From Candidatus Methylomirabilis sp. (GTDB lineage: Bacteria > Methylomirabilota > Methylomirabilia > Methylomirabilales > Methylomirabilaceae), in the NCBI GenBank assembly GCA_041498975.1, contig JBGQJI010000085.1, forward strand, positions 1 through 10,618: 10,618 nt of DNA, given 5' to 3'. A program made the position numbers and the translations under genes. Below, one piece after another: positions 7 to 10,429 of the stretch (position 1 is its first letter; each line of letters starts with the position of its first letter). The notes under the pieces were generated by a model, which searched no databases, was not told the DNA's origin, and saw only the letters and a list, made by a program, of their open reading frames with translations.

Positions 7-543
7 TTATCGATGATTGGCCGCGACACCACGCGACGGCCGCAAGACAATGGCCTGTTCACCGGCGATCTCAAGCAGCGAGAGCCGCATAACGCCACTT
101 TCCAGCCAGTGTGGCGCTAGCCGGCTCAGGCTGATCGGCAAGGCGTCTAGTTCCAGGCCAACCGGCTCGTGAACCAACCACCCTCCCTCCATCCGAAAGC
201 CAGCCCCCTGCTGTTGCCGATCCGGAGTCCCGGCGCCATATCCTTGGGTGGAGCTGGTCAGGAGGCGCAGTCGTGCGGTTGGCGTGATCTGGTAGGTCTC
301 GCGCCACTGAAAGTGCTCGACGGAGTGCTCCCAGGTCACGGTAAAACGCTCAGTTATTGGGACCGGAACGATCCGCAAGAGGCGGGGCGGAACGCTCTGA
401 GTCCAGATCTCCAGCTCCCTAGCACGCGCCACGCCTCCCGACAATAGGAGGATTCCAATGCAATAAAGCGTCACGCGACGCAACGCGGTCTCTCGTACCC
501 CAGGAAGACTCTGAGCCCTCCCCGTCGCCATCACGGGTATCAA
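7..543 (-). CDS. DUF1850-family protein (N-terminal hydrophobic anchor); true start uncertain (TTG 543, ATG 531 or later)
   Basis: Translation contains FTVTWEHSVEHFQWRETY...LRLLTSSTQGYGAGTP, matching the remembered DUF1850 pattern (FxxxxxHSVExxxxxExY...GAGxP). It is preceded by a hydrophobic stretch, LYCIGILLLSGG. Co-oriented and about 50 nt downstream of the cassette A permease. Confidence 0.7.
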   Translation of the reverse strand: MIPVMATGRAQSLPGVRETALRRVTLYCIGILLLSGGVARARELEIWTQSVPPRLLRIVPVPITERFTVTWEHSVEHFQWRETYQITPTARLRLLTSSTQGYGAGTPDRQQQGAGFRMEGGWLVHEPVGLELDALPISLSRLAPHWLESGVMRLSLLEIAGEQAIVLRPSRGVAANHR

Positions 544-594: not shown

Positions 595-1704
595 CTACTT
601 GACGGCGCCGGTGGTCATGCCCGAAATGAAATAATCGAGGGATAGCGCGTACAAAATCACCACCGGGATCGACCCTATTATCGCAGACGCCATGAGCGGC
701 CCCCAGAAATATACGTCCCCGCGGACCATGTCCACCGTGATACCAACTGGCAGGGTCCGGTTCACGGTCGAGCTGATAAAGGTGAGTGCGTAGACGTACT
801 CCTGGAACGAGAGGGTGAAGGCGAAGATGGCCGCAGTCAGGATTCCTGGAAGCACGACCGGGATCACAACCAGGCGGAGCATCTGTAAGCGCGTCGCCCC
901 GTCCAGCAGCGCACGCTCTTCGATCTCCTTCGGGACGCTCCGGAAGAACCCCATGAGCAGCCACGTGCAGAACGGGACGGTAAATGTCGGGTATGTGAGA
1001 ATCAAAGACCAGATCGTGTTGGAGACCTTCAGCGCAGATACAAATTGGGAAAACGGAATGAACAGGATCGTCGACGGGATGAGGTAGGTCAGGAATATGG
1101 CGATCCCCACACCACGGTTGCCCGGAAAGCGCAACCTCGCCAGACCGTAGGCGGCCGGGACCGCCATCAGAAGCGTGATGACCACCACCACCGAGCCGGT
1201 CACGAGGCTCACCCGCATCCAGCGATAGAAGGGGGTGCTGAACAGATACCGGTAGTGTGTGAGGGTCGGGTTGGGCACATGGATGACGCCGATCACCTCG
1301 TTGGGATGCGCGATCTGCCCGGATTGAACGCGGACCTCCGCCAGCGTCCCATCAACCGGGCTTGTGATCTTCTGCTCACCGATAAATGCGATGGGCGCGG
1401 GATCTTGCTCACTGTCGCTCCGAGTGGTCTGGGCACTCTGGCCGATCTGCCACCGGATCACGCCCTCGACCAGTGATGCGGGCACGATGATGTCTTTGTG
1501 GTATGGCAACCCGCTGGCACTATCCACCCTCGAGAACCAAAAGGGATTCCTCCGAAGGTCGTACAGGTTTGCGTCAGCCTTCAGCGAAGTAATGAGCCCC
1601 CAATAGAATGGGAACAGAGCGAAGGCAAGGAAGGGAGCCAGCCCAAGGTATGAGAAGAGGTGGGGCTTGATCCGGTGCCAGACTGCCCCGCGCCCTTGCG
1701 CCAT
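595..1704 (-). CDS. Carbohydrate (CUT1) ABC transporter permease, MalG-like, with ~85-aa extracytoplasmic lipoyl-fold-like insertion
   Basis: FPFYWGLITSLK, AAYGLARLRFPG, YPTFTVPFCTWLLMGFFRSVPKEIEERALLDGA (EAA-type loop), TLPVG, C-terminal GMTTGAVK. Starts 2 nt after the stop of the upstream permease. Confidence 0.95.
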   Translation of the reverse strand: MAQGRGAVWHRIKPHLFSYLGLAPFLAFALFPFYWGLITSLKADANLYDLRRNPFWFSRVDSASGLPYHKDIIVPASLVEGVIRWQIGQSAQTTRSDSEQDPAPIAFIGEQKITSPVDGTLAEVRVQSGQIAHPNEVIGVIHVPNPTLTHYRYLFSTPFYRWMRVSLVTGSVVVVITLLMAVPAAYGLARLRFPGNRGVGIAIFLTYLIPSTILFIPFSQFVSALKVSNTIWSLILTYPTFTVPFCTWLLMGFFRSVPKEIEERALLDGATRLQMLRLVVIPVVLPGILTAAIFAFTLSFQEYVYALTFISSTVNRTLPVGITVDMVRGDVYFWGPLMASAIIGSIPVVILYALSLDYFISGMTTGAVK

Positions 1705-1706
1705 CG

Positions 1707-3044
1707 CTACGCCTCTCGACGAAGGAACTGGAGCATGAAGTAGACCATCACGGCCATGATCGGGAACATGAAGAGGGAAATCGCCGCGCCCCTGCCCAGG
1801 TACCCGGCGTTGACCCCTATTTGATAGGCGTAGGTCGAAAGGACCTGCGTCTGGTCATAGGGTCCCCCTTTCGTGATGATCCAGATGGTGTTGAAATCTG
1901 TAAAGCTGAAGATCACGGAGAAGAGGAGCGAGACCATCAGGATGGGCCGAACCATCGGCGAGATGATGTAGATGAACCGCTGGAAAGCGCTGGCGCCGTC
2001 CACACGGGCCCGCTCGATGATCTCGTCGGGAATGGCGGTGAGGCCGGCCAGGATCACGATCGTCGTGAAAGGGAAACCCCGCCACACGTTGACGAGGATG
2101 ACCGAAAACATGGCCCAGTCCTTATCGCCCCGGAAGTTGATGATATTGGCGGGCGTGATGATCCCCCAGTTGACCAGGCACCAGTTAATGACGCTGTAGG
2201 TAGAATCGAGGATCCACAGCCAAGCCTGCGCGCTGATGGCGATCGGAATCACCCAAGGGATCACGATGAGGCCGCGGAGAATCCTCCGGCCACCGAAGCG
2301 CCGGTTGAGCAACATGGCGCAGGGAACTCCGATGAACAGCTTGACGATCTCGGTCCCGAACGTGTACTTGAACGTGTTCTTGAGGGCCAGTGGGAAGTTC
2401 GGGTCTTGGACAACGCCCGTCCCGTTCGTCTTGACCCTGGTGTCGGCCTTCAGCAGGAGTTGCTCCTTTCGCATTCGGTCCAGCGCCCCTCTGGTAGCGA
2501 ACGGGCCCAGCGTGATCGGGGACTCTTTGGCGTGGGCCACAACGGCGTAGCTCCCCGCCTCTGGTCGGACCTCCCAGTCAAGGTCTTGAAGGATGGTCTC
2601 GCCCTGAAAGACGACGTCCTTCTCGTTTTCCATTTCGAGGAATGGGATCGTGCGGTCGGCAATCAGGAACGAGCCACGGAACCGCGCCCCCTGGGCCGGG
2701 GCGGTGACCACCTTCCCCTGGCTACGCTGCGCGACGAATGCCCGTGCGACCGCCTCGGTGGGAAACGTCGCGATCACGAAATCGTTGGCGAGGATTTCGT
2801 AACTTGACACGTGTGAATAATTGCCCAGGCCAATAAAACTCCACCGCTCATTACCGGCTTGCGCGTCGGTCAGGCTCAGATAGATGGACATGATGAACGG
2901 ATAGGCGATAAACAGGCTCAAGTAGAGGATGGCTGGCAGGATCAGCGCGTAACCAAGCGGTCGTTCCCTCTCGAGGAACTTGACCCGGCTGCGGGCCGGC
3001 GTTACAACCTCGGCGGGAAGCGCGGGCGCAGTCAGATCGCGCAC
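1707..3044 (-). CDS. Carbohydrate (CUT1) ABC transporter permease, MalF-like, with ~130-aa extracytoplasmic insertion
   Basis: LPAILYL..YPF, FIGLGNY, NVWRGFPF, LAGLTAIPDEIIERARVDGA, TKGGP. The GTG start overlaps the ATPase stop by 13 nt and has GGGAGA just upstream. Confidence 0.95.
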   Translation of the reverse strand: MRDLTAPALPAEVVTPARSRVKFLERERPLGYALILPAILYLSLFIAYPFIMSIYLSLTDAQAGNERWSFIGLGNYSHVSSYEILANDFVIATFPTEAVARAFVAQRSQGKVVTAPAQGARFRGSFLIADRTIPFLEMENEKDVVFQGETILQDLDWEVRPEAGSYAVVAHAKESPITLGPFATRGALDRMRKEQLLLKADTRVKTNGTGVVQDPNFPLALKNTFKYTFGTEIVKLFIGVPCAMLLNRRFGGRRILRGLIVIPWVIPIAISAQAWLWILDSTYSVINWCLVNWGIITPANIINFRGDKDWAMFSVILVNVWRGFPFTTIVILAGLTAIPDEIIERARVDGASAFQRFIYIISPMVRPILMVSLLFSVIFSFTDFNTIWIITKGGPYDQTQVLSTYAYQIGVNAGYLGRGAAISLFMFPIMAVMVYFMLQFLRREA

Positions 3045-4117
3045 TCGGTCTCCCGATCGAAGAGATACGCTCGATTCATATCGAACCAGAAATCGATGTG
3101 ATCGAGGCGCTGGACCCCTGCATAAATCTCGATCTCAACCTGGAATACCCCAGCGGAGCACGTGGCAGACACAATGACGTCGTGCCCGAGCGGCTCCACT
3201 TCGTCGATCACGGCCGGGACCTTCACCGCATATGGGCGCCCGTTGGGATCAAGCGAAATGTACTCGGGCCGGATTCCGAACACGACCGGGCGGCCGGCGG
3301 ACCCCACGAGATCCTGCCGGGCAAGTCGCAGTCGCAGCCCCCCCTCGAGGACGACCGCGGCTTGCCCGTCACTTGTCGCCAGCTCTCCGTTAAAGAAGTT
3401 CATGGGGGGGCTGCCAATGAAGCTGGCGACGAATTGGGTGGCCGGCCGATCGTACACCTCGAGGGGCGTACCGATCTGGCAGATGACGCCGTGGTTCATG
3501 ATCACGATCCGGTCGCCCATCGTCATCGCCTCGACCTGATCGTGAGTAACGTAGATCATCGTGGACTTGACGCTATGGTGGAGTCGCTTAAGCTCCGTGC
3601 GCATGTGCACGCGGAGCTTGGCGTCGAGATTCGACAACGGCTCATCGAAGAGGAGCACCCCTGCCTGGCGGCAGAGGGCCGCCCCCACCGCCACCCGCTG
3701 CCGCTGTCCGCCCGAGAGCTGCCTGGGCTTGCGCTCGAGATGCTCGCCGAGGCCGAGGATATCAGCGACTTCCCGGACGCGCCCGTCGATCTCCCGCTTA
3801 GGCAGTCTTCTGAGCTGGAGAGCAAACGCCATATTGCGATAGACCGTCATGTGGGGATACAGCGCGTAGCTCTGGAAGACCATGGCGATGTCGCGGTCAC
3901 GCGGGGGGAGATACGTCACCGACCGACCGCCGATCCGGATGTCGCCGCCGGACACCTCCTCCAATCCTGCGATCATGCGGAGGGTCGTCGTCTTGCCGCA
4001 TCCGGACGGGCCGACGAGGATAACGAACTCCTGGTCCTTCACGGTGAGGTCGATCCCGCGGACGGCCAGCACCTCACCGAACCGTTTCTCGACGTGCTCG
4101 AGCGTCACGTCTGCCAT
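3032..4117 (-). CDS. MalK/UgpC/MsmX-family ABC transporter ATP-binding protein with C-terminal TOBE/OB region
   Basis: Walker A GPSGCGKT, Q-loop MVFQSYALYPH, signature LSGGQRQR, Walker B/D-loop LLFDEPLSNLD, H-switch YVTHDQVEAM, FIGSPPMN, GIRPE. Confidence 0.97.
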   Translation of the reverse strand: MADVTLEHVEKRFGEVLAVRGIDLTVKDQEFVILVGPSGCGKTTTLRMIAGLEEVSGGDIRIGGRSVTYLPPRDRDIAMVFQSYALYPHMTVYRNMAFALQLRRLPKREIDGRVREVADILGLGEHLERKPRQLSGGQRQRVAVGAALCRQAGVLLFDEPLSNLDAKLRVHMRTELKRLHHSVKSTMIYVTHDQVEAMTMGDRIVIMNHGVICQIGTPLEVYDRPATQFVASFIGSPPMNFFNGELATSDGQAAVVLEGGLRLRLARQDLVGSAGRPVVFGIRPEYISLDPNGRPYAVKVPAVIDEVEPLGHDVIVSATCSAGVFQVEIEIYAGVQRLDHIDFWFDMNRAYLFDRETECAI

Positions 4118-4145
4118 GGCTGGCTCGCACGAAGGCGTAAGCGAG

Positions 4146-4178
4146 AGCGGCGTGCCGGTTTGCGGCCGCTACGCCGCT
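4146..4178 (-). promoter_or_regulatory. Intercistronic stem-loop after the solute-binding protein gene (probable mRNA-stabilising hairpin)
   Basis: AGCGGCGT (4146-4153) pairs with ACGCCGCT (4171-4178), with an inner GCCG/CGGC stem. No U-tract follows on the minus (coding) strand. Confidence 0.5.
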
Positions 4179-4189
4179 TTTCCCACTGT

Positions 4190-5497
4190 CTATCCGGCAC
4201 GCAGCTTCTGCTCCGCTTCATCCATCGCAGCCCGCGGCGCCTTCTGGCCGGTGCATACCTGCGCGAACATCGTGGGGACGATGAACTTGGCGTACATGGT
4301 CGTCGCTGTCTTGGTCATTGGGCCAGGAAAGCCGATGAACTTCACGTAATCCTGGTAATCCTGCAGGAGCATCAGCTTCGGCTCATGGCCGATCACCGGC
4401 ATGGGCTTCTTGAAGAAGGCTCTGAGGTAGGGATGATTGTAGCCGGTGGAGGATTCCATTCCCTTCAGACCCTCTTTGTTCATCGCGTATAGGAACTCCT
4501 TGGCCAGATCCTGCACCTTGGAGAACTTGTAGATCCCATACGACATGGTCCGAGCGCCCCCAACTCGAATCTCACCCGCCCCGATCGGCGCCTTCACGAT
4601 CTCCAAGTTCTTATAGACATCCGGCTGGTCTTTGGCCGCGGTCCGATATGCGCTGATGGGATTGCAAATCATCGAGCCCTTGCCGGAGGCGATGAACCGG
4701 TTGTTCGAGGTATCGTCCCAGCTCAGCACCTCGTCGGTCATCGTCTCCTTGAAGAGCGCTGCGCCGAACCGGAGCACCTCGACGATCTCCTTCTTGGCGA
4801 AGGCGATCTGCCCAACCGTGTTGAACATGTCGGCCTTGTAGCTAAGCATCATGGGGACCAGGTTATCGTTGGAGTCGGGCGTCTGCGATATGGGAATGCC
4901 CAGCGGATGGCCGGCCTTCTTCAGCTTTGCCCCGATTTGTCGGATATCCTCCCACGTGGTCTTGTCGGTGTAGTCCGCTCCGACTTCGTTGAAGTACTGG
5001 CGGTTGATAATCCAGGGGAAGCTCATGTACCAGTGCGGGATGCAGAGCCACTTGCCGCGGACCACAGCTACCGATGAGGCTTCAGGGATCCAGCCACCGA
5101 ATTCCTTTGCCAGCCGGTTGGAGACATCGGTCACGTCAACCAGCCCCTGATCGTAGAGCCACCCTCCCGTACCGTTCAAATGGAAGATGTCGTGACCGCC
5201 GCCTCGGGAGATGTCGGCTGCGATCGCGGTAGGGAGATCGGGCGTGGCGACATAGTCCACCTCGACCTTGACCTTGTGGGCCTCGCCAAAAGCCTTGGTG
5301 AAGACATCGAAGTACTTGTCATAATCGGGCACGAAGTGCTTCCAGTGGACGATCTTCAGGACCTTTTCCTGGGCCTCGGAAACGCGCCGTACCAAAATTG
5401 TCGGTGCGGCGACAGCCGCGCTCGCGGCAAGAGACAGCTTCAAGAAGTCGCGCCGCCCGATCCCAGCTTGCTTAGGGCTTTCGTGTCGCTTTTGCAT
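4190..5497 (-). CDS. Extracellular solute-binding protein (family 1) with twin-arginine (Tat) signal
   Basis: GRRDFLK twin-arginine motif followed by a hydrophobic stretch and EAQ. Body motifs WKHFVPDYD, LVDVTDV, GHPLG, WDDTSNNRF. Strong RBS GGAGG upstream (CCTCC at 5503-5507 on +). Confidence 0.95.
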   Translation of the reverse strand: MQKRHESPKQAGIGRRDFLKLSLAASAAVAAPTILVRRVSEAQEKVLKIVHWKHFVPDYDKYFDVFTKAFGEAHKVKVEVDYVATPDLPTAIAADISRGGGHDIFHLNGTGGWLYDQGLVDVTDVSNRLAKEFGGWIPEASSVAVVRGKWLCIPHWYMSFPWIINRQYFNEVGADYTDKTTWEDIRQIGAKLKKAGHPLGIPISQTPDSNDNLVPMMLSYKADMFNTVGQIAFAKKEIVEVLRFGAALFKETMTDEVLSWDDTSNNRFIASGKGSMICNPISAYRTAAKDQPDVYKNLEIVKAPIGAGEIRVGGARTMSYGIYKFSKVQDLAKEFLYAMNKEGLKGMESSTGYNHPYLRAFFKKPMPVIGHEPKLMLLQDYQDYVKFIGFPGPMTKTATTMYAKFIVPTMFAQVCTGQKAPRAAMDEAEQKLRAG

Positions 5498-5732
5498 TGC
5501 GTCCTCCTATGACGGGAGAACCCGACCTGCGGGCGCCCCGTGCTATGCAATTTGGAAATCCCCACTCATCCTCGGTGACGGATGTCGGACTGATTGGGCT
5601 AGGTTCATTGCTACGATGGGCTCGAGGGAACAGGGCCCAGGAAAACATAGCTACCCAGTACGATTCGTTTGTCTGGAGCGTGCGCACCCACTACTACATC
5701 GGACCGCCCATTGGGCCGGAAAAAGCGTCCCA

Positions 5733-5762
5733 AGAATGGCCAAATTTCCCATTCCCTGTCAA
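5733..5762 (-). promoter_or_regulatory. Candidate sigma70-type promoter for cassette A
   Basis: Minus strand reads TTGACA (5762-5757), an 18-nt spacer, then CATTCT (5738-5733), in an AT-richer patch of the intergenic region. Confidence 0.5.
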
Positions 5763-5820
5763 TAGAAAAGTGGCGCAGGGCGTAGAGGTTGAAGCCTCCT
5801 GGCCGGATTTCCGCGTTGTT

Positions 5821-5830
5821 GGTCATGACC
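5821..5830. promoter_or_regulatory. Perfect 10-bp palindrome GGTCATGACC, possible transcription-factor operator
   Basis: Seen directly, about 60 bp upstream of the candidate -35. Function is inferred only. Confidence 0.25.
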
Positions 5831-5985
5831 GGATAGACGCGCTCGACAAAACAGGGTATCCAGAATCATCGCCGGAGCCGATGCAACAAGCGGCATGACG
5901 GTTCTGTCGCCAAAGGCTCGGAGAATCGTGGGATTCGTTGGACAAGGGTGCGGTATCGCGGCGGTTCAGTCTGGGAGGGCGAGTC

Positions 5986-6489
5986 TCAGTAGGCCTTGTT
6001 AATCACGATGTCCACGTTCGTAGACCCCACGGTTACCGGATTCCCCGAGTAGGTTCCTTCGAGCGTGCCCGGCTTTGCAGCGCCCACCATCCCTGCCGGA
6101 TCGATGCGCGCCGTGACGTACACCTTGCCCACAAAAGTCGAACCGACAAGAGTGATGTCCTCAGACGTGAGCTTATACTGATAGGGGAAGGTGGCGTCGA
6201 AAACCCGATTGACGACGATGGCCGGCTTGTTGGGCGCCGCTGATGGCGAGGCCATGATCATGAGAAGCGGCCGTTTTCCCGCCTTCTGCTTGAGGGACGG
6301 GTCCAAGGTGATCGTGCCCGAGATGGCCGCTTCCTGGGTTGGCGCCGTCTCCGCGGCCGGAGCCGAGGGTCCAGCCTTCTTTTCCTCCTTCTTCTCCCCA
6401 CAGGCTTGTAGAACTATCAAGAGAGCGACAATGGTTAGCGCGATCGTGAACCCAGAGCGATGACGTTCCGTTGTCGTCACTTTTCGCAT
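5986..6489 (-). CDS. Lipoprotein with a stand-alone CcmI/CycH C-terminal Ig-like domain
   Basis: Hydrophobic signal ending in lipobox LQAC (Cys30), then a Lys/Glu and Ala/Pro linker. ISGTITLDPSL..LMIMA...P..V.R....FPYQYKLTSED...VYVTARIDPAG....PGTLEG resembles the CycH/CcmI C-terminal domain pattern. RBS GGAGG abuts the start (6490-6494). Confidence 0.7.
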   Translation of the reverse strand: MRKVTTTERHRSGFTIALTIVALLIVLQACGEKKEEKKAGPSAPAAETAPTQEAAISGTITLDPSLKQKAGKRPLLMIMASPSAAPNKPAIVVNRVFDATFPYQYKLTSEDITLVGSTFVGKVYVTARIDPAGMVGAAKPGTLEGTYSGNPVTVGSTNVDIVINKAY

Positions 6490-6623
6490 CCTCCAAGATT
6501 ACAGTCCCCCGGCACTCCGCTAGTGCCGTTCGAGCTACTTGCGCCAAAATAGTGAGAATATGGAAGGCGATAGTTCTTAGCAGGACATCTGTCGGCGATT
6601 GGCTGCAACGAGCTTGAACGGTA

Positions 6624-7550
6624 CTAGCCCTTTACGGCACCGGTGATCCCAGCCACGTAATGTTCGACGAAGAATGAGTAGATCAGAGCGACAGGGATCG
6701 AGCCCAGCAGGGCCCCCGCCATCAGTTCGCCCCAGTAGAACACGTCACCCTTGATTAGTTCACTCACCACGCCTACGGGAACCGTCTTGTTGGCGGCGTC
6801 GGAAATGAAGATCAGCGCATAGAGAAACTCATTGGCCGACAGGGTGAAAGCGAAGATTCCAGCCGAGACCACGCCCGGCAGGGCCAGGGGCAGGATGATC
6901 CGCAGCATGGCCTGAATCCGGGTCGCGCCATCGATCATGGCCGCTTCCTCCAGCTCCTTGGGGATTGTCCGGAAGTAACCGGACAGGAGCCACGTGCAAA
7001 ACGGAACCAGGAAGGTCGGATAGGCCACAATCAGGCCCCACGGGTTGTTCAGCAAGTTCCAGTGCAGGAGCGGCATGTTCCCTATCAAGTCGGACAATGG
7101 AATGAAGAGCAGGGTGGGCGGGACCAGGTAGGTGATGAAGATCAGGACCCCCAAGGTGTCAACGCCCCGGAACTTCAGACGCGCAAGCGCATACGCCGCC
7201 GTGATCCCCGCGAAGAGGGAGACAATGGTGGAGACGATGGCGATGAACAGCGTGTTCTTCAGCCACTGGACGAAGAGGGTGTCCCGCAACAGGTAGCGCC
7301 AGTGGTAAAGGCAATTCTCCATCAGGGCCGAGCCGTCGAAGTGTACCGCCCTGACCTGCTCTACGATGGCCGTTGTGCACGCCACGGGTATATACGGGTT
7401 CACGTTCCGGTTATATGTCTCGTGAGTGGACTTGATGGAGGTCACGAACATCCAATAGAAGGGGAAAAGGGTGAAGACAATGAAGAAGAAGAGCGGGAGG
7501 TGAAAGACCACCAGCCGCTTGCCGAACCCCTCGCCCACCGGCGCTCGCAT
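6624..7550 (-). CDS. Carbohydrate (CUT1) ABC transporter permease, MalG-like (cassette B)
   Basis: FPFYWMFVTSIK, AAYALARLKFRG, YPTFLVPFCTWLLSGYFRTIPKELEEAAMIDGA (canonical EAA), GDVFYWG, GITGAVKG. Clear paralog of 595..1704. Confidence 0.96.
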   Translation of the reverse strand: MRAPVGEGFGKRLVVFHLPLFFFIVFTLFPFYWMFVTSIKSTHETYNRNVNPYIPVACTTAIVEQVRAVHFDGSALMENCLYHWRYLLRDTLFVQWLKNTLFIAIVSTIVSLFAGITAAYALARLKFRGVDTLGVLIFITYLVPPTLLFIPLSDLIGNMPLLHWNLLNNPWGLIVAYPTFLVPFCTWLLSGYFRTIPKELEEAAMIDGATRIQAMLRIILPLALPGVVSAGIFAFTLSANEFLYALIFISDAANKTVPVGVVSELIKGDVFYWGELMAGALLGSIPVALIYSFFVEHYVAGITGAVKG

Positions 7551-7554
7551 CGTC

Positions 7555-8583
7555 CTACCTTTGACCCCTTCGGAGGTAGACCAACTGATAGATGATCACG
7601 AGGGCGAGGACAGGGAACATGAAGAGGGACACAGCCGCGCCAAGCCCAAGCCTCGTTCCCACCATGGCGATCTGGTAGGCGTACGTCGCAAAAAGGTGGG
7701 TGCTGTTGGCCGGGCCTCCGCGGGTCAAGACGTACACGATCTGAAAGTCCGAGAACGTCACGATGATAGAGAACACAATGACCACCACCGTGATCGGCTT
7801 GATTCCAGGGAGCGTCACGTGCCAGAACCGCTGCCAGCCACTGGCGCCATCGATGGCCGCGGCCTCGTACAGATCCGGATCGATCGTTTGCAACCCTGCC
7901 AGGAACGAGATCGCATAGAAGGGGGTTCCGCGCCAGATATTGACGAAGGTGACTGACATCAGGGCCAGCGTAGGGTCGCCGAGCCAGAGCGGGCCTTTCA
8001 CGTACCCCCACCCCAACTTGGTATAGAACCAGCGAAGAGTCCAGTTGATCACGCTGAAGTCCGGATCGAAGATCCACAGAAAGGCGATGGTGCTGAGGAC
8101 CGTTGGAATGATCCAGGGCAGGAGGACCGCGGCCCGGACGATCCGCTGGAACCGTACCATCCGATTCAGCAGGACCGCCAGCCAGATCCCCAGGACCCAT
8201 TTTACTGCCGTGGCGATCCCGGTGTAGACAAAGCTGTTCCGAACCGCATTCCAGAAGACGCCGTCAGTGGTCCAGAGGTGGACGTAGTTCCTGAGGCCGA
8301 TGAAACTCACCCGAGACCATGGCATCCCGACTTCTTTGTTGGTGAGGCTCATCCAGACGCCCCAGCCGAAGGGGTAGGCAATGAAGGAGAAAATGATGAA
8401 GGCGGCGGGCAGCATGAGGAGATATCCCAGAACGTCCTGCCGCTCTAGGAGGCCTACCGCCCTTCGGGAAAGCCGGACGGTTCGGATCGCCCCAGGGCTG
8501 CTAGCGGCCGACTCCTCGACCGCCACCGGGAGCCCGGCGTGAGGCACCTCCTTTCCCGCACGCTCTCGAACCTTCTCTTCCAT
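7555..8583 (-). CDS. Carbohydrate (CUT1) ABC transporter permease, MalF-like (cassette B)
   Basis: YPF, FIGLRNY, NIWRGTPF, LAGLQTIDPDLYEAAAIDGA (canonical EAA), TRGGPANSTHL. Its stop lies 4 nt before the next gene. Confidence 0.96.
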   Translation of the reverse strand: MEEKVRERAGKEVPHAGLPVAVEESAASSPGAIRTVRLSRRAVGLLERQDVLGYLLMLPAAFIIFSFIAYPFGWGVWMSLTNKEVGMPWSRVSFIGLRNYVHLWTTDGVFWNAVRNSFVYTGIATAVKWVLGIWLAVLLNRMVRFQRIVRAAVLLPWIIPTVLSTIAFLWIFDPDFSVINWTLRWFYTKLGWGYVKGPLWLGDPTLALMSVTFVNIWRGTPFYAISFLAGLQTIDPDLYEAAAIDGASGWQRFWHVTLPGIKPITVVVIVFSIIVTFSDFQIVYVLTRGGPANSTHLFATYAYQIAMVGTRLGLGAAVSLFMFPVLALVIIYQLVYLRRGQR

Positions 8584-8657: not shown

Positions 8658-9647
8658 TTACCCGGCGTAGATCGACTTGAGCTGCCCCTCAGCCCACTTC
8701 ATCGATTCCTCGGGCGACATCTTGCCCGTCGCGACGTTCGCCAGCATGTCGATGAGGACGTAGTTCTGGACGACCCGCGCCGCACCGACGTCCGCCTCGC
8801 CCTTCCACCCGACGTTCTTCATCTCCAGCAGGTGGTCCCTGAACGGCTTGAGGGCGGGGAACATGTCCCACATGAGGTCTTTCATGTACATCTTCAGGGC
8901 CCCTGCTTGATAGGCCTGCCCCCGGCGCAGGTACTTGGCAAGCTGATCCTTCTCCATGAGCCAGCGGATGAAATCCTTGGCCGCGTCCACATTCTTCGAA
9001 TACTTGGGGATCGCCAGTTGCTGGGTGTAGTGATAGTGGAAGACACCCGCCGGCCCCGCAGGGTTCGAGACGTGGGCGATGTCGTTGACCAGCGGGTCTC
9101 CGTTGTCATCGAGGATCACCTGATTCGAGGCGGTGAGGTAGATGCTCGGCGCGTTGTTGGTCGCGGCGATCGCCCCGGACAGGAACGCCCGGTTGTTGTT
9201 GGAGTCGTCCCAACCCGCCCCTGCGGGGTCCATCGCATCGTCCCAGAGGGCTTTGAAGAACTTCAACGCCTCCAAGGTTTGCTTGCTCCCGATGGTGACC
9301 CGCCCCTTCTCATCGCGCTCCGCGGCGCCGAAGCTCCACAGGTAGGGGTACGTGAAATCCACGGCGTCGCCGAATGTGTGGCCGACGGTCTGGCCGATCG
9401 GATGCCCTGCGGCCTTCCACTTCTTTCCCTCACGCCGCAGCTCCTCCCACGTCTTGGGCCAATGCTGAGTGCCCGCAGCCTTGAGATAGGAATTCCGAAC
9501 GACATAGACATTAGGGACGATGGTGTGTGGGACCGCGTTGAACCGCCCACCAAGCATGGCGTGGCGCTTGCAATAATCAAGGTAGCCGCCGTATTTGGAT
9601 TCCAGAGCGGTGCAGAGATCGGTGACATCAACCAGCGCGTCCGCATA
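8658..9647 (-). CDS. C-terminal ~320 aa of a family-1 solute-binding protein, paralog of 4190..5497; N-terminus and signal peptide absent (3' part of chimeric ORF 8658..10295)
   Basis: LVDVTDL..L..KYGG, GHPIG, WDDSNNNRAFLSG and IPKYSKNVDAAKDF align with LVDVTDV..L.KEFGG, GHPLG, WDDTSNNRFIASG and IYKFSKVQDLAKEF of the cassette A binding protein. Confidence 0.9.
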   Translation of the reverse strand, partial: YADALVDVTDLCTALESKYGGYLDYCKRHAMLGGRFNAVPHTIVPNVYVVRNSYLKAAGTQHWPKTWEELRREGKKWKAAGHPIGQTVGHTFGDAVDFTYPYLWSFGAAERDEKGRVTIGSKQTLEALKFFKALWDDAMDPAGAGWDDSNNNRAFLSGAIAATNNAPSIYLTASNQVILDDNGDPLVNDIAHVSNPAGPAGVFHYHYTQQLAIPKYSKNVDAAKDFIRWLMEKDQLAKYLRRGQAYQAGALKMYMKDLMWDMFPALKPFRDHLLEMKNVGWKGEADVGAARVVQNYVLIDMLANVATGKMSPEESMKWAEGQLKSIYAG

Positions 9648-10295
9648 CTCCGGCCCAATGATTTTTTCTGCCACCGCCCGCGCCGCGGAAAGATTCGGGA
9701 CGCGGTGCTTGGTGTCGTGAGCGTCCGAGGCCAGAATGTGGACAGCCGAGCGGTCGAGCAGCCAGCGCGCAATGATCTCGGGCCGCTCTCCCCACAGCCC
9801 CGTCAGCGCCGAGGCCGTGACCTGAATCAGACAGCCCTGCTCCGCCCACTCGAGAATGCGCTGCGGCGTTTGTTGCAGGATAGGGTTACGTTCAGGATGG
9901 GTCAGAATCGGCGTCAGCCCGCGATCTCCCAAACGCCGGAAACAGTCGGTAAGCTGGGTCGGCACGCTGTAGTTGCTCAGTTCAATCAGCAGATAGTTGG
10001 TTTCGCCAATCGTGTACGTGTGCGGCCGCTCCAAAACGCGTTCCAGATTCTCGAACGAAAGATGAAAATCGCAACCCAGGCTCAACTCCAGTATGGGGCC
10101 GGCCTTCTCCCGCAGTTCGCCCAAAAGCCCGGAAAGGTACGCGCGATCGTAGGCGTAACGATCACTGGCATGCGGAGTGGCCACAGTATGGGTTATGCCG
10201 TCCGCCGCCGCCATGCGGCACATTTCGACCGCAACATCCCAGGACTTGGGGCCGTCGTCGACCTCGGGCAGAAGGTGGCAGTGGATGTCGATCAC
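9627..10295 (-). CDS. CpsB/CapC (YwqE/Wzh-type) PHP-family metal-dependent protein-tyrosine phosphatase, apparently missing its last ~15 residues (5' part of chimeric ORF 8658..10295)
   Basis: MIDIHCHLLPEVDDG, VATPH, YLLIEL, ILTHPERN, LIQVTASALTG and ASDAH are the PHP metal-binding motifs of CpsB/CapC. GTG start. The usual terminal N-P helix is replaced by binding-protein sequence. Confidence 0.92.
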
Positions 10296-10338: not shown

Positions 10339-10429
10339 ATCGATCGGGTGATCGGCCCATCGGGCCATCGAAAACCCAAGGGCTTTTGCTTCTCGATCAT
10401 CCGATGACCCGATCACCCGATGAGCCGAT
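10339..10429. repeat. Imperfect palindrome built from tandem 8-mers (ATCGGNNN on the left, NNNCCGAT on the right); REP-like intergenic element
   Basis: Left units: ATCGGGTG, ATCGGCCC, ATCGGGCC, ATCGAAAA (10343-10374). Right units: TTCTCGAT, CATCCGAT, GACCCGAT, CACCCGAT, GAGCCGAT (10390-10429). The units pair in register, and 10343-10350 pairs perfectly with 10414-10421. Confidence 0.75.

Follow-up and report, generated by a model that had tools for sequence, protein, structure and literature searches.

In bacteria that carry many CUT1 import systems together with shared ATPases, what matches an ATPase to its pair of permeases is poorly understood. The question is raised by an ATP-binding cassette (ABC) importer, here called cassette A, on contig JBGQJI010000085.1 of Candidatus Methylomirabilis sp. 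(GCA_041498975.1), a metagenome-assembled genome of 2.68 Mb in 241 contigs that is 84.9% complete. The window analysed is this whole contig (C85; 10,618 bases). In cassette A, the EAA coupling motif has arginine as its second residue in both permeases, and the ATPase has alanine where its relatives have an arginine in the signature helix. Has a charged residue changed sides at the interface between motor and channel? Comparison of homologues confirms a conserved variant of the presumed interface throughout the family of this cassette. The favoured reading, given a probability of about one half, is a co-evolved, two-sided remodelling of the permease-ATPase interface in which the arginine is supplied in trans.

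Cassette A (595-5497) has the features of a CUT1-type importer, namely two BPD_transp_1 permeases, a MalK-type ATPase and a solute-binding protein (SBP) of Cluster SBP_bac_1. Its genes are the following:

595-1704, minus strand: G permease, MalG-type, 369 amino acids; BPD_transp_1 (PF00528) at residues 182-362
1707-3044, minus strand: F permease, MalF-type, 445 amino acids, GTG start; BPD_transp_1 (PF00528) at residues 237-440
3032-4117, minus strand: ATPase, MalK/UgpC-type, 361 amino acids, with a C-terminal OB/TOBE domain; PF00005, PF17912 and PF08402
4190-5497, minus strand: SBP, 435 amino acids; SBP_bac_1 (PF01547) and SBP_bac_8 (PF13416) above cut-off

The PF00528 matches of the permeases have E values of 7e-13 and 8.4e-16, and the ATPase gene overlaps the start of the F-permease gene by 13 nucleotides. 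The C-terminal domain of the ATPase matches PF17912 (E = 2.1e-13) and, slightly below the 21-bit cut-off, PF08402 (20.9 bits, E = 3.9e-4). The TAT_signal match of the SBP is weak (21.1 bits against a cut-off of 22.7).

Residue states in cassette A and its homologues

Both permeases contain an EAA-type coupling loop, with its Glu, Asp-Gly-Ala and downstream Pro, about 100 residues from the C-terminus. In the G permease the loop reads IEERALLDGA from residue 261 and EAA position 2 is R264 (CGT, 913-915); in the F permease it reads IIERARVDGA from residue 342, with R345 (CGG, 2010-2012) at the same position. These residues and codons are exactly those reported in the first-pass annotation of the window, which proposed the swap, and its description of the two permeases of the adjacent cassette B as canonical (LEEAAMIDGA and LYEAAAIDGA) held on re-reading.

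The cassette-A ATPase reads LSGGQRQRVAVGAALCR from residue 134, with Ala146 encoded by GCG at 3680-3682, and retains the arginine that follows Walker A (R47); both the alanine, at that codon, and the kept Arg47 equivalent had been claimed from the sequence, and both were borne out. At the position 11 residues after the signature Ser, where the ABC core carries a conserved arginine, the residue here is Ala146. The best solved relative of the ATPase is MalK 1g29 (E = 1.1e-113), and when the ATPase is aligned with its three best solved relatives, 1g29 MalK, 4tqu AlgS and 2d62, Arg stands opposite A146 in each case. Chains of Escherichia coli MalK align over residues 1-292 with residues 1-291 of the query, the number 146 for the E. 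coli residue being that of the first-pass annotation. The core ATPase motifs are invariant in an alignment of 32 sequences (G36-T44, Q82, L134-G137, D158, E159 and H192).

These states are retained among close homologues. The 120 closest ATPase homologues (69-93% identity) all read VAVGAALCR, 118 being counted by regular expression and 2 by eye, and all 120 keep R47. On the permease side, 119 of the 120 closest G-permease homologues (72-100% identity) keep ERA and the other has ESA. Farther out the picture is different: the 150 nearest representatives of 50%-identity clusters, drawn from 1.84 billion proteins, have Arg in 147 cases, Ala in one and Ser in one, with no motif in the last, and the sole Ala belongs to a fragment of the cassette-A ATPase family. 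Within the genome itself, all 12 other ABC ATPases whose column was read have Arg there (13 read, including that of cassette A, from 17 listed).

Genomes were scanned for ERA permeases with the DNA pattern ERAxxDGAxxxQ(x7)P. Among 251 genomes of the same phylum, genuine permease matches were found solely in this genome; the 8 other matches resemble the reverse strand of unrelated genes, as judged from the printed matches only. A scan of 400 genomes of a second phylum gave a single match, which is not a permease. The pattern did recover the cassette-A family in two further genomes (G254 and G255), and it is judged to be sensitive because its EAA version matched 20 sites in 5 genomes. Matches to the ERA pattern in metagenomes, with the family excluded at motif position 4, were rejected as chance, since a CUT1 permease was present in none of the 80 loci fetched from at least 120 matches.

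Linkage of the three states across operons

Species genomes of Acidobacteriota and Myxococcota yielded eight related operons (L001-L008). The F permease reads ERA in all eight, the G permease reads ERA in all eight and the ATPase reads GAA in all eight, the last count comprising seven of seven ATPases read by BLAST and the frameshifted one of L007 read in six frames. The order SBP-ATPase-F-G is found in six of the eight loci (L001-L005 and L007), while L006 lies at a contig end without an SBP and L008 is fragmented. Frameshifts interrupt the ATPase and permease genes of the family cassette in L007 and L008 (genomes G657 and G658); they are probably assembly errors and not decay. By these comparisons, cassette A is a member of a discrete, strongly conserved CUT1-type family found in several phyla.

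The 71 remaining loci of that scan (L009-L079; 48-58% identity) were taken as the outgroup. Their F permeases have Ala at EAA position 2 without exception (72 of 72), and their G permeases (n = 76) have Cys in 45 cases, Ala in 18, Ser in 7 and Gln in 6. Arginine is thus found at this position in 0 of 148 outgroup permeases, and the MalK-type ATPases that stand beside permeases have Arg at the column of residue 146 in 46 of 46 cases. Given these counts, the co-occurrence of ERA, ERA and Ala146 is clearly not due to chance.

In the G permeases of these neighbouring CUT1 subfamilies, ECA is the commonest form of the motif (45 of 76) and EAA is not the majority.

Predicted position of the permease arginine

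A complex was predicted for ATPase residues 1-245 with G-permease residues 150-369, the F-permease side lying outside the model. It scores 0.75, with the best of three controls at 0.00; this mark is attained by 116 of 157 solved complexes and by 2 of 215 mismatched pairs, and because similar complexes have been solved (MalFGK2 and AlgM1M2SS), the result is a sign of resemblance to these and not a demonstration of binding. The runs share at least 94% of contacts, and the predicted local distance difference test (pLDDT) value of the partner is at least 74. In the predicted complex, the pairs of lowest expected error for R264 are those with Y87, F81, M79 and A85 of the ATPase groove. The predicted interface also takes in ATPase residues 98-99 and 102-103 as well as R150, one helical turn after residue 146.

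The first-pass annotation had asked whether the permease arginine fills the site of R146. The model bears this out in part, with R264 placed in the groove and R150 at the interface; it yielded neither a contact nor a distance for R264 and A146.

The Q-loop senses the gamma-phosphate of ATP. In CFTR, R560 is taken here to occupy the same column as A146, 11 residues after the signature Ser, and W496 and F508 presumably correspond to residues 85 and 98 of the cassette-A ATPase. Both of the latter residues lie within the predicted interface. On this assumed alignment, the canonical arginine and the permease arginine would be placed beside the same Q-loop residue, which makes an arginine in trans sterically reasonable. 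Passages of a preprint describe R560 as bonding to W496 and stacking on F508 (bioRxiv 10.1101/2024.11.20.624197), and passages of a second article report that CFTR variants at 558-569 meet residues of intracellular loop 4 (ICL4) at the interface of nucleotide-binding domain 1 (NBD1) with ICL4 (PMC11257600). The location at the coupling-helix interface that had been ascribed to R560 agrees with these passages, which put the arginine close to the Q-loop and to the patch around F508 contacted by the coupling helix. A literature search on Arg146 of MalK found no passage on this residue, the sole paper with both terms being concerned with Arg146 of GalS; R146 and R47 are unmentioned in PMC3150292, and PMC3348156 deals only with ABC-B exporters.

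Weighing of the explanations

Under the favoured reading of a two-sided remodelling, the long permease arginine would reach into the groove of the pre-Q-loop strand and the Q-loop (M79, F81, A85 and Y87). This groove would adjoin the normal packing site of the ATPase's own arginine, so that the charge would be given in trans. Ala146 would make room for the permease arginine, and R264 and R345 would occupy the vacated site. The altered pair would then be poorly compatible with canonical partners, that is, the ATPase would be private. As an arginine swap, this reading is plausible but unproven. Its strongest form, in which the arginine has moved to both coupling helices and motor and channel fit only each other as a natural orthogonal pair, is unlikely.

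A number of observations weigh against the swap, and they favour an explanation in which the three substitutions were fixed independently on a long stem with no physical coupling. A maximum likelihood tree of 33 ATPase sequences groups the six family members in a single clade (support 100/100), and the stem leading to it measures 0.88 substitutions per site. Its sister clade (90/71) holds the genome's own orphan ATPase, encoded on contig C28, as well as sequences from Rokubacteria and Verrucomicrobia. With a single clade on so long a stem, the linkage of the three states is one evolutionary event and not repeated co-variation, and the three changes may have been fixed together on that one branch. 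The first-pass annotation had proposed that ERA permeases should co-vary with a non-Arg residue at position 146 across homologous operons. Their linkage does hold in eight of eight operons, and Arg146 accompanies non-Arg permeases outside the family, but with a single event a strict test of co-variation could not be passed with these data. The ATPase domain carries 12 family-specific fixed changes, and the outgroup is invariant at four of these positions (R146A, V149C, P152A and V206I), three of which fall within 146-152. In the alignment, residues 146-153, where the signature helix ends and the loop leading to Walker B follows, are accordingly remodelled as a block, and with V149C and P152A near A146, the lost arginine could be compensated inside the ATPase. 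The arginine can moreover be lost independently, as indicated by a large, separate ATPase clade, named Lachnospiraceae by its sources (Enterocloster, Lachnoclostridium, Bilifractor and others), which has Ser at the column (GSA or GSV). Among the 120 closest homologues of one such protein, P0269, 59 have Ser there (proteins P0269 and P0273-P0391). Position 2 of the outgroup G-type loops is variable in the presence of Arg146 (n = 76: ECA 45, ESA 5, DSA 2, EQA 5, EQG 1); to judge from these motifs, the G-type pocket tolerates Cys, Ser and Gln beside the canonical arginine. One permease within the family (P0074) is the lone ESA, and A146 is not named among the predicted interface residues, a result that the tool treats as uncertain and not as negative. 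Under independent fixation, the permease arginine would have a role of its own, for example in tightening the docking through a cation-pi interaction with Y87. Against independent fixation stand the gain of arginine by both permeases at one shared position of the motif, where F permeases otherwise uniformly have Ala, the great rarity of each state outside the family, and the model's placing of R264 on residues of the Q-loop, next to the site of the canonical arginine. With these points on both sides, independent fixation is possible but somewhat less than likely, and the remodelling of both sides of the interface remains the favoured reading.

The changes could also alter the coupling of hydrolysis to transport, through Q-loop dynamics or basal ATPase activity, and not partner specificity, in the service of the family's substrate or of the large periplasmic inserts. 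The passages on CFTR, which border the arginine column on the Q-loop, and the unusual permease inserts are in line with such kinetic tuning, but it leaves the like change of both coupling helices unexplained and is quite improbable. A sequencing error, pseudogene or assembly chimera has in its favour the origin of the window, a 10.6-kb contig of a metagenome-assembled genome whose far end beyond about 9650 lacks support from other sequencing runs. It is contradicted by intact reading frames, by conservation of the states in 120 homologues of each kind and in eight operons, and by contigs of three other runs (X4, X5 and X6) that continue from 5363 into cassette B and show 0-1 differences, and an artefact is accordingly hardly credible. 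As between these explanations and a co-evolved interface, the last is preferred.

If the orthogonal-pair reading were true, a horizontally transferred cassette would neither borrow nor lend ATPases among canonical MalK-type systems, and this genome, with both cassette B and the orphan C28 ATPase, would be an example. A single charged residue seemingly switched between the sides of an interface would be a simple specificity determinant made of three point mutations, and possibly a rule for designing orthogonal ABC importers. Even if uncoupled, the changes are a clear marker of the family and show that a near-universal arginine of the signature helix can be lost.

Genomic setting and origin

The remaining features of the window are the following:

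7-543, minus strand: DUF1850 gene, by domain match
5986-6489, minus strand: small Ig_CycH-like protein, by domain match
6624-7550, minus strand: cassette-B G-type permease, 308 amino acids, with the canonical motif LEEAAMIDGA
7555-8583, minus strand: cassette-B F-type permease, 342 amino acids, with the canonical motif LYEAAAIDGA
8658-10295, minus strand: open reading frame of 545 amino acids with domain matches

Cassette B has no ATPase gene of its own within the window. In total, the genome encodes four CUT1 permeases, those of cassettes A and B, and two MalK-type ATPases. The second ATPase (C28:22882-23988) is 54% identical to that of cassette A and has the canonical GRA, and no CUT1 permease is found on its 24.7-kb contig. 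It groups with ATPases of tandem two-cassette loci in Rokubacteria and is likely the motor of cassette B. A canonical, Arg-bearing MalK-type ATPase is present in all six family genomes examined (this genome and five others). In L003 the family cassette adjoins a canonical cassette with its own GRA ATPase, and in a relative of the same order (G047) a single GRA ATPase is flanked by two canonical cassettes.

Cassette A is absent from all 19 genomes of the same genus, as tested with the ERA pattern. In one of these (G056; locus L231 on its contig C164), the cassette-B permease is 97% identical and the small protein 81% identical, and these are followed by unrelated ABC ATPases and no cassette A; nucleotide similarity to this genome ends near position 5979 of the window. 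The closest relatives of cassette A are from Acidobacteriota and Myxococcota, at 75-84% identity. Absence from the genus and from the corresponding site of G056, relatives in other phyla and the self-contained nature of the cassette point to its horizontal acquisition by this genome, which is most likely on these comparisons. Neither repeats nor mobile-element ends flank cassette A, and the guanine-cytosine content of the contig (0.599, against a genome mean of 0.619 with a standard deviation of 0.012) is not decisive on a foreign origin. Horizontal acquisition fits the insulation idea and does not prove it.

The junction between cassettes A and B is real in nature, as runs X4, X5 and X6, which are not flagged as the source of the DNA, bridge it. 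A joint from 966 to 7000 in a contig of X5 (side 26, depth 3.4) was considered as a deletion and rejected, being read as a join across two similar EAA-coding stretches. The 545-residue open reading frame joins a CpsB/PHP-type phosphatase (residues 1 to about 215) to residues 137-462 of an ordinary SBP, and at about 9649/9650 the contigs of four other runs match to 9649 and then diverge (up to 1280 letters, in X6), with depth near zero beyond 9650. The contig is thus probably chimeric at about 9649/9650, and the binding protein of cassette B is probably intact in nature. In the unsupported part, upstream of this reading frame, lies a 37-nucleotide inverted repeat (10343-10421) that is 78% complementary and has a 5-nucleotide loop.

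Both cassette-A permeases have large inserts in the first periplasmic loop, at residues of about 57-150 in the G permease (about 95 amino acids, after the first transmembrane helix) and about 75-215 in the F permease. They are longer than their counterparts in cassette B (369 against 308 amino acids for G and 445 against 342 for F). The insert of the G permease has a weak Biotin_lipoyl_2 match (E = 0.0011; 19.2 bits against a cut-off of 29.8). The genes that flank family cassettes include malate synthase (L001 and L004), a GlcD/E/F-like flavin adenine dinucleotide (FAD) oxidase with CCG/Fe-S subunits (L004, L007 and L008) and LUD-domain proteins (L007). Family cassettes thus often have neighbours from glycolate- or lactate-type metabolism (L001, L004, L007 and L008), and this hints that the substrate is perhaps not a classical sugar. 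For the clade of ATPases with Ser at the column, a tblastn search of plasmids with P0303 returned no match above 58% identity.

Relation to known systems

A literature search on shared versus dedicated ATPases gave nothing relevant, and the comparison below is made with individual systems. The closest known system is the maltose importer MalFGK2 with its ATPase MalK (1g29 from Thermococcus litoralis; 1q12 and 2r6g from E. coli). The cassette-A ATPase is colinear with MalK through Walker A, Q-loop, LSGGQ, Walker B, H-loop and the OB/TOBE domain; both systems have two BPD_transp_1 permeases with EAA-type loops, and cassette A keeps the motif Glu and the arginine after Walker A. It differs in having Ala for the signature-helix arginine, Arg twice at EAA position 2 and inserts in the first periplasmic loops. 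The alginate importer AlgM1M2SS (4tqu), which supplies the second-best solved relative of the ATPase (E = 7.1e-111), has the canonical arginine at the column, unlike cassette A. By the UgpC subfamily model (NCBIfam NF008653), which does not prove a substrate, the cassette-A ATPase scores 452.5 bits against a cut-off of 432; the C28 orphan ATPase scores higher (504.2 bits) and, unlike that of cassette A, keeps the arginine.

With CFTR the likeness is confined to the column, which by the numbering assumed above is that of R560, beside W496 and F508, with surrounding variants that contact ICL4 in the passages cited. CFTR has an exporter-type fold with another coupling helix, and loss of its arginine leads to misfolding disease, whereas in the cassette-A family the loss is fixed and conserved. 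The multitask ATPases MsmX and MsiK are of the same ATPase family as that of cassette A (Bacillus subtilis MsmX 6yir, E = 5.8e-106), and in passages of one article the residues of the groove (the F81-Y87 region and A73 of MalK) are discussed as possibly letting one ATPase serve many permeases (PMC7658222). The cassette-A ATPase, by contrast, is encoded inside its own SBP-ATPase-F-G operon and not by an orphan gene, and if the hypothesis holds, its altered groove floor would restrict the partners that it can serve.

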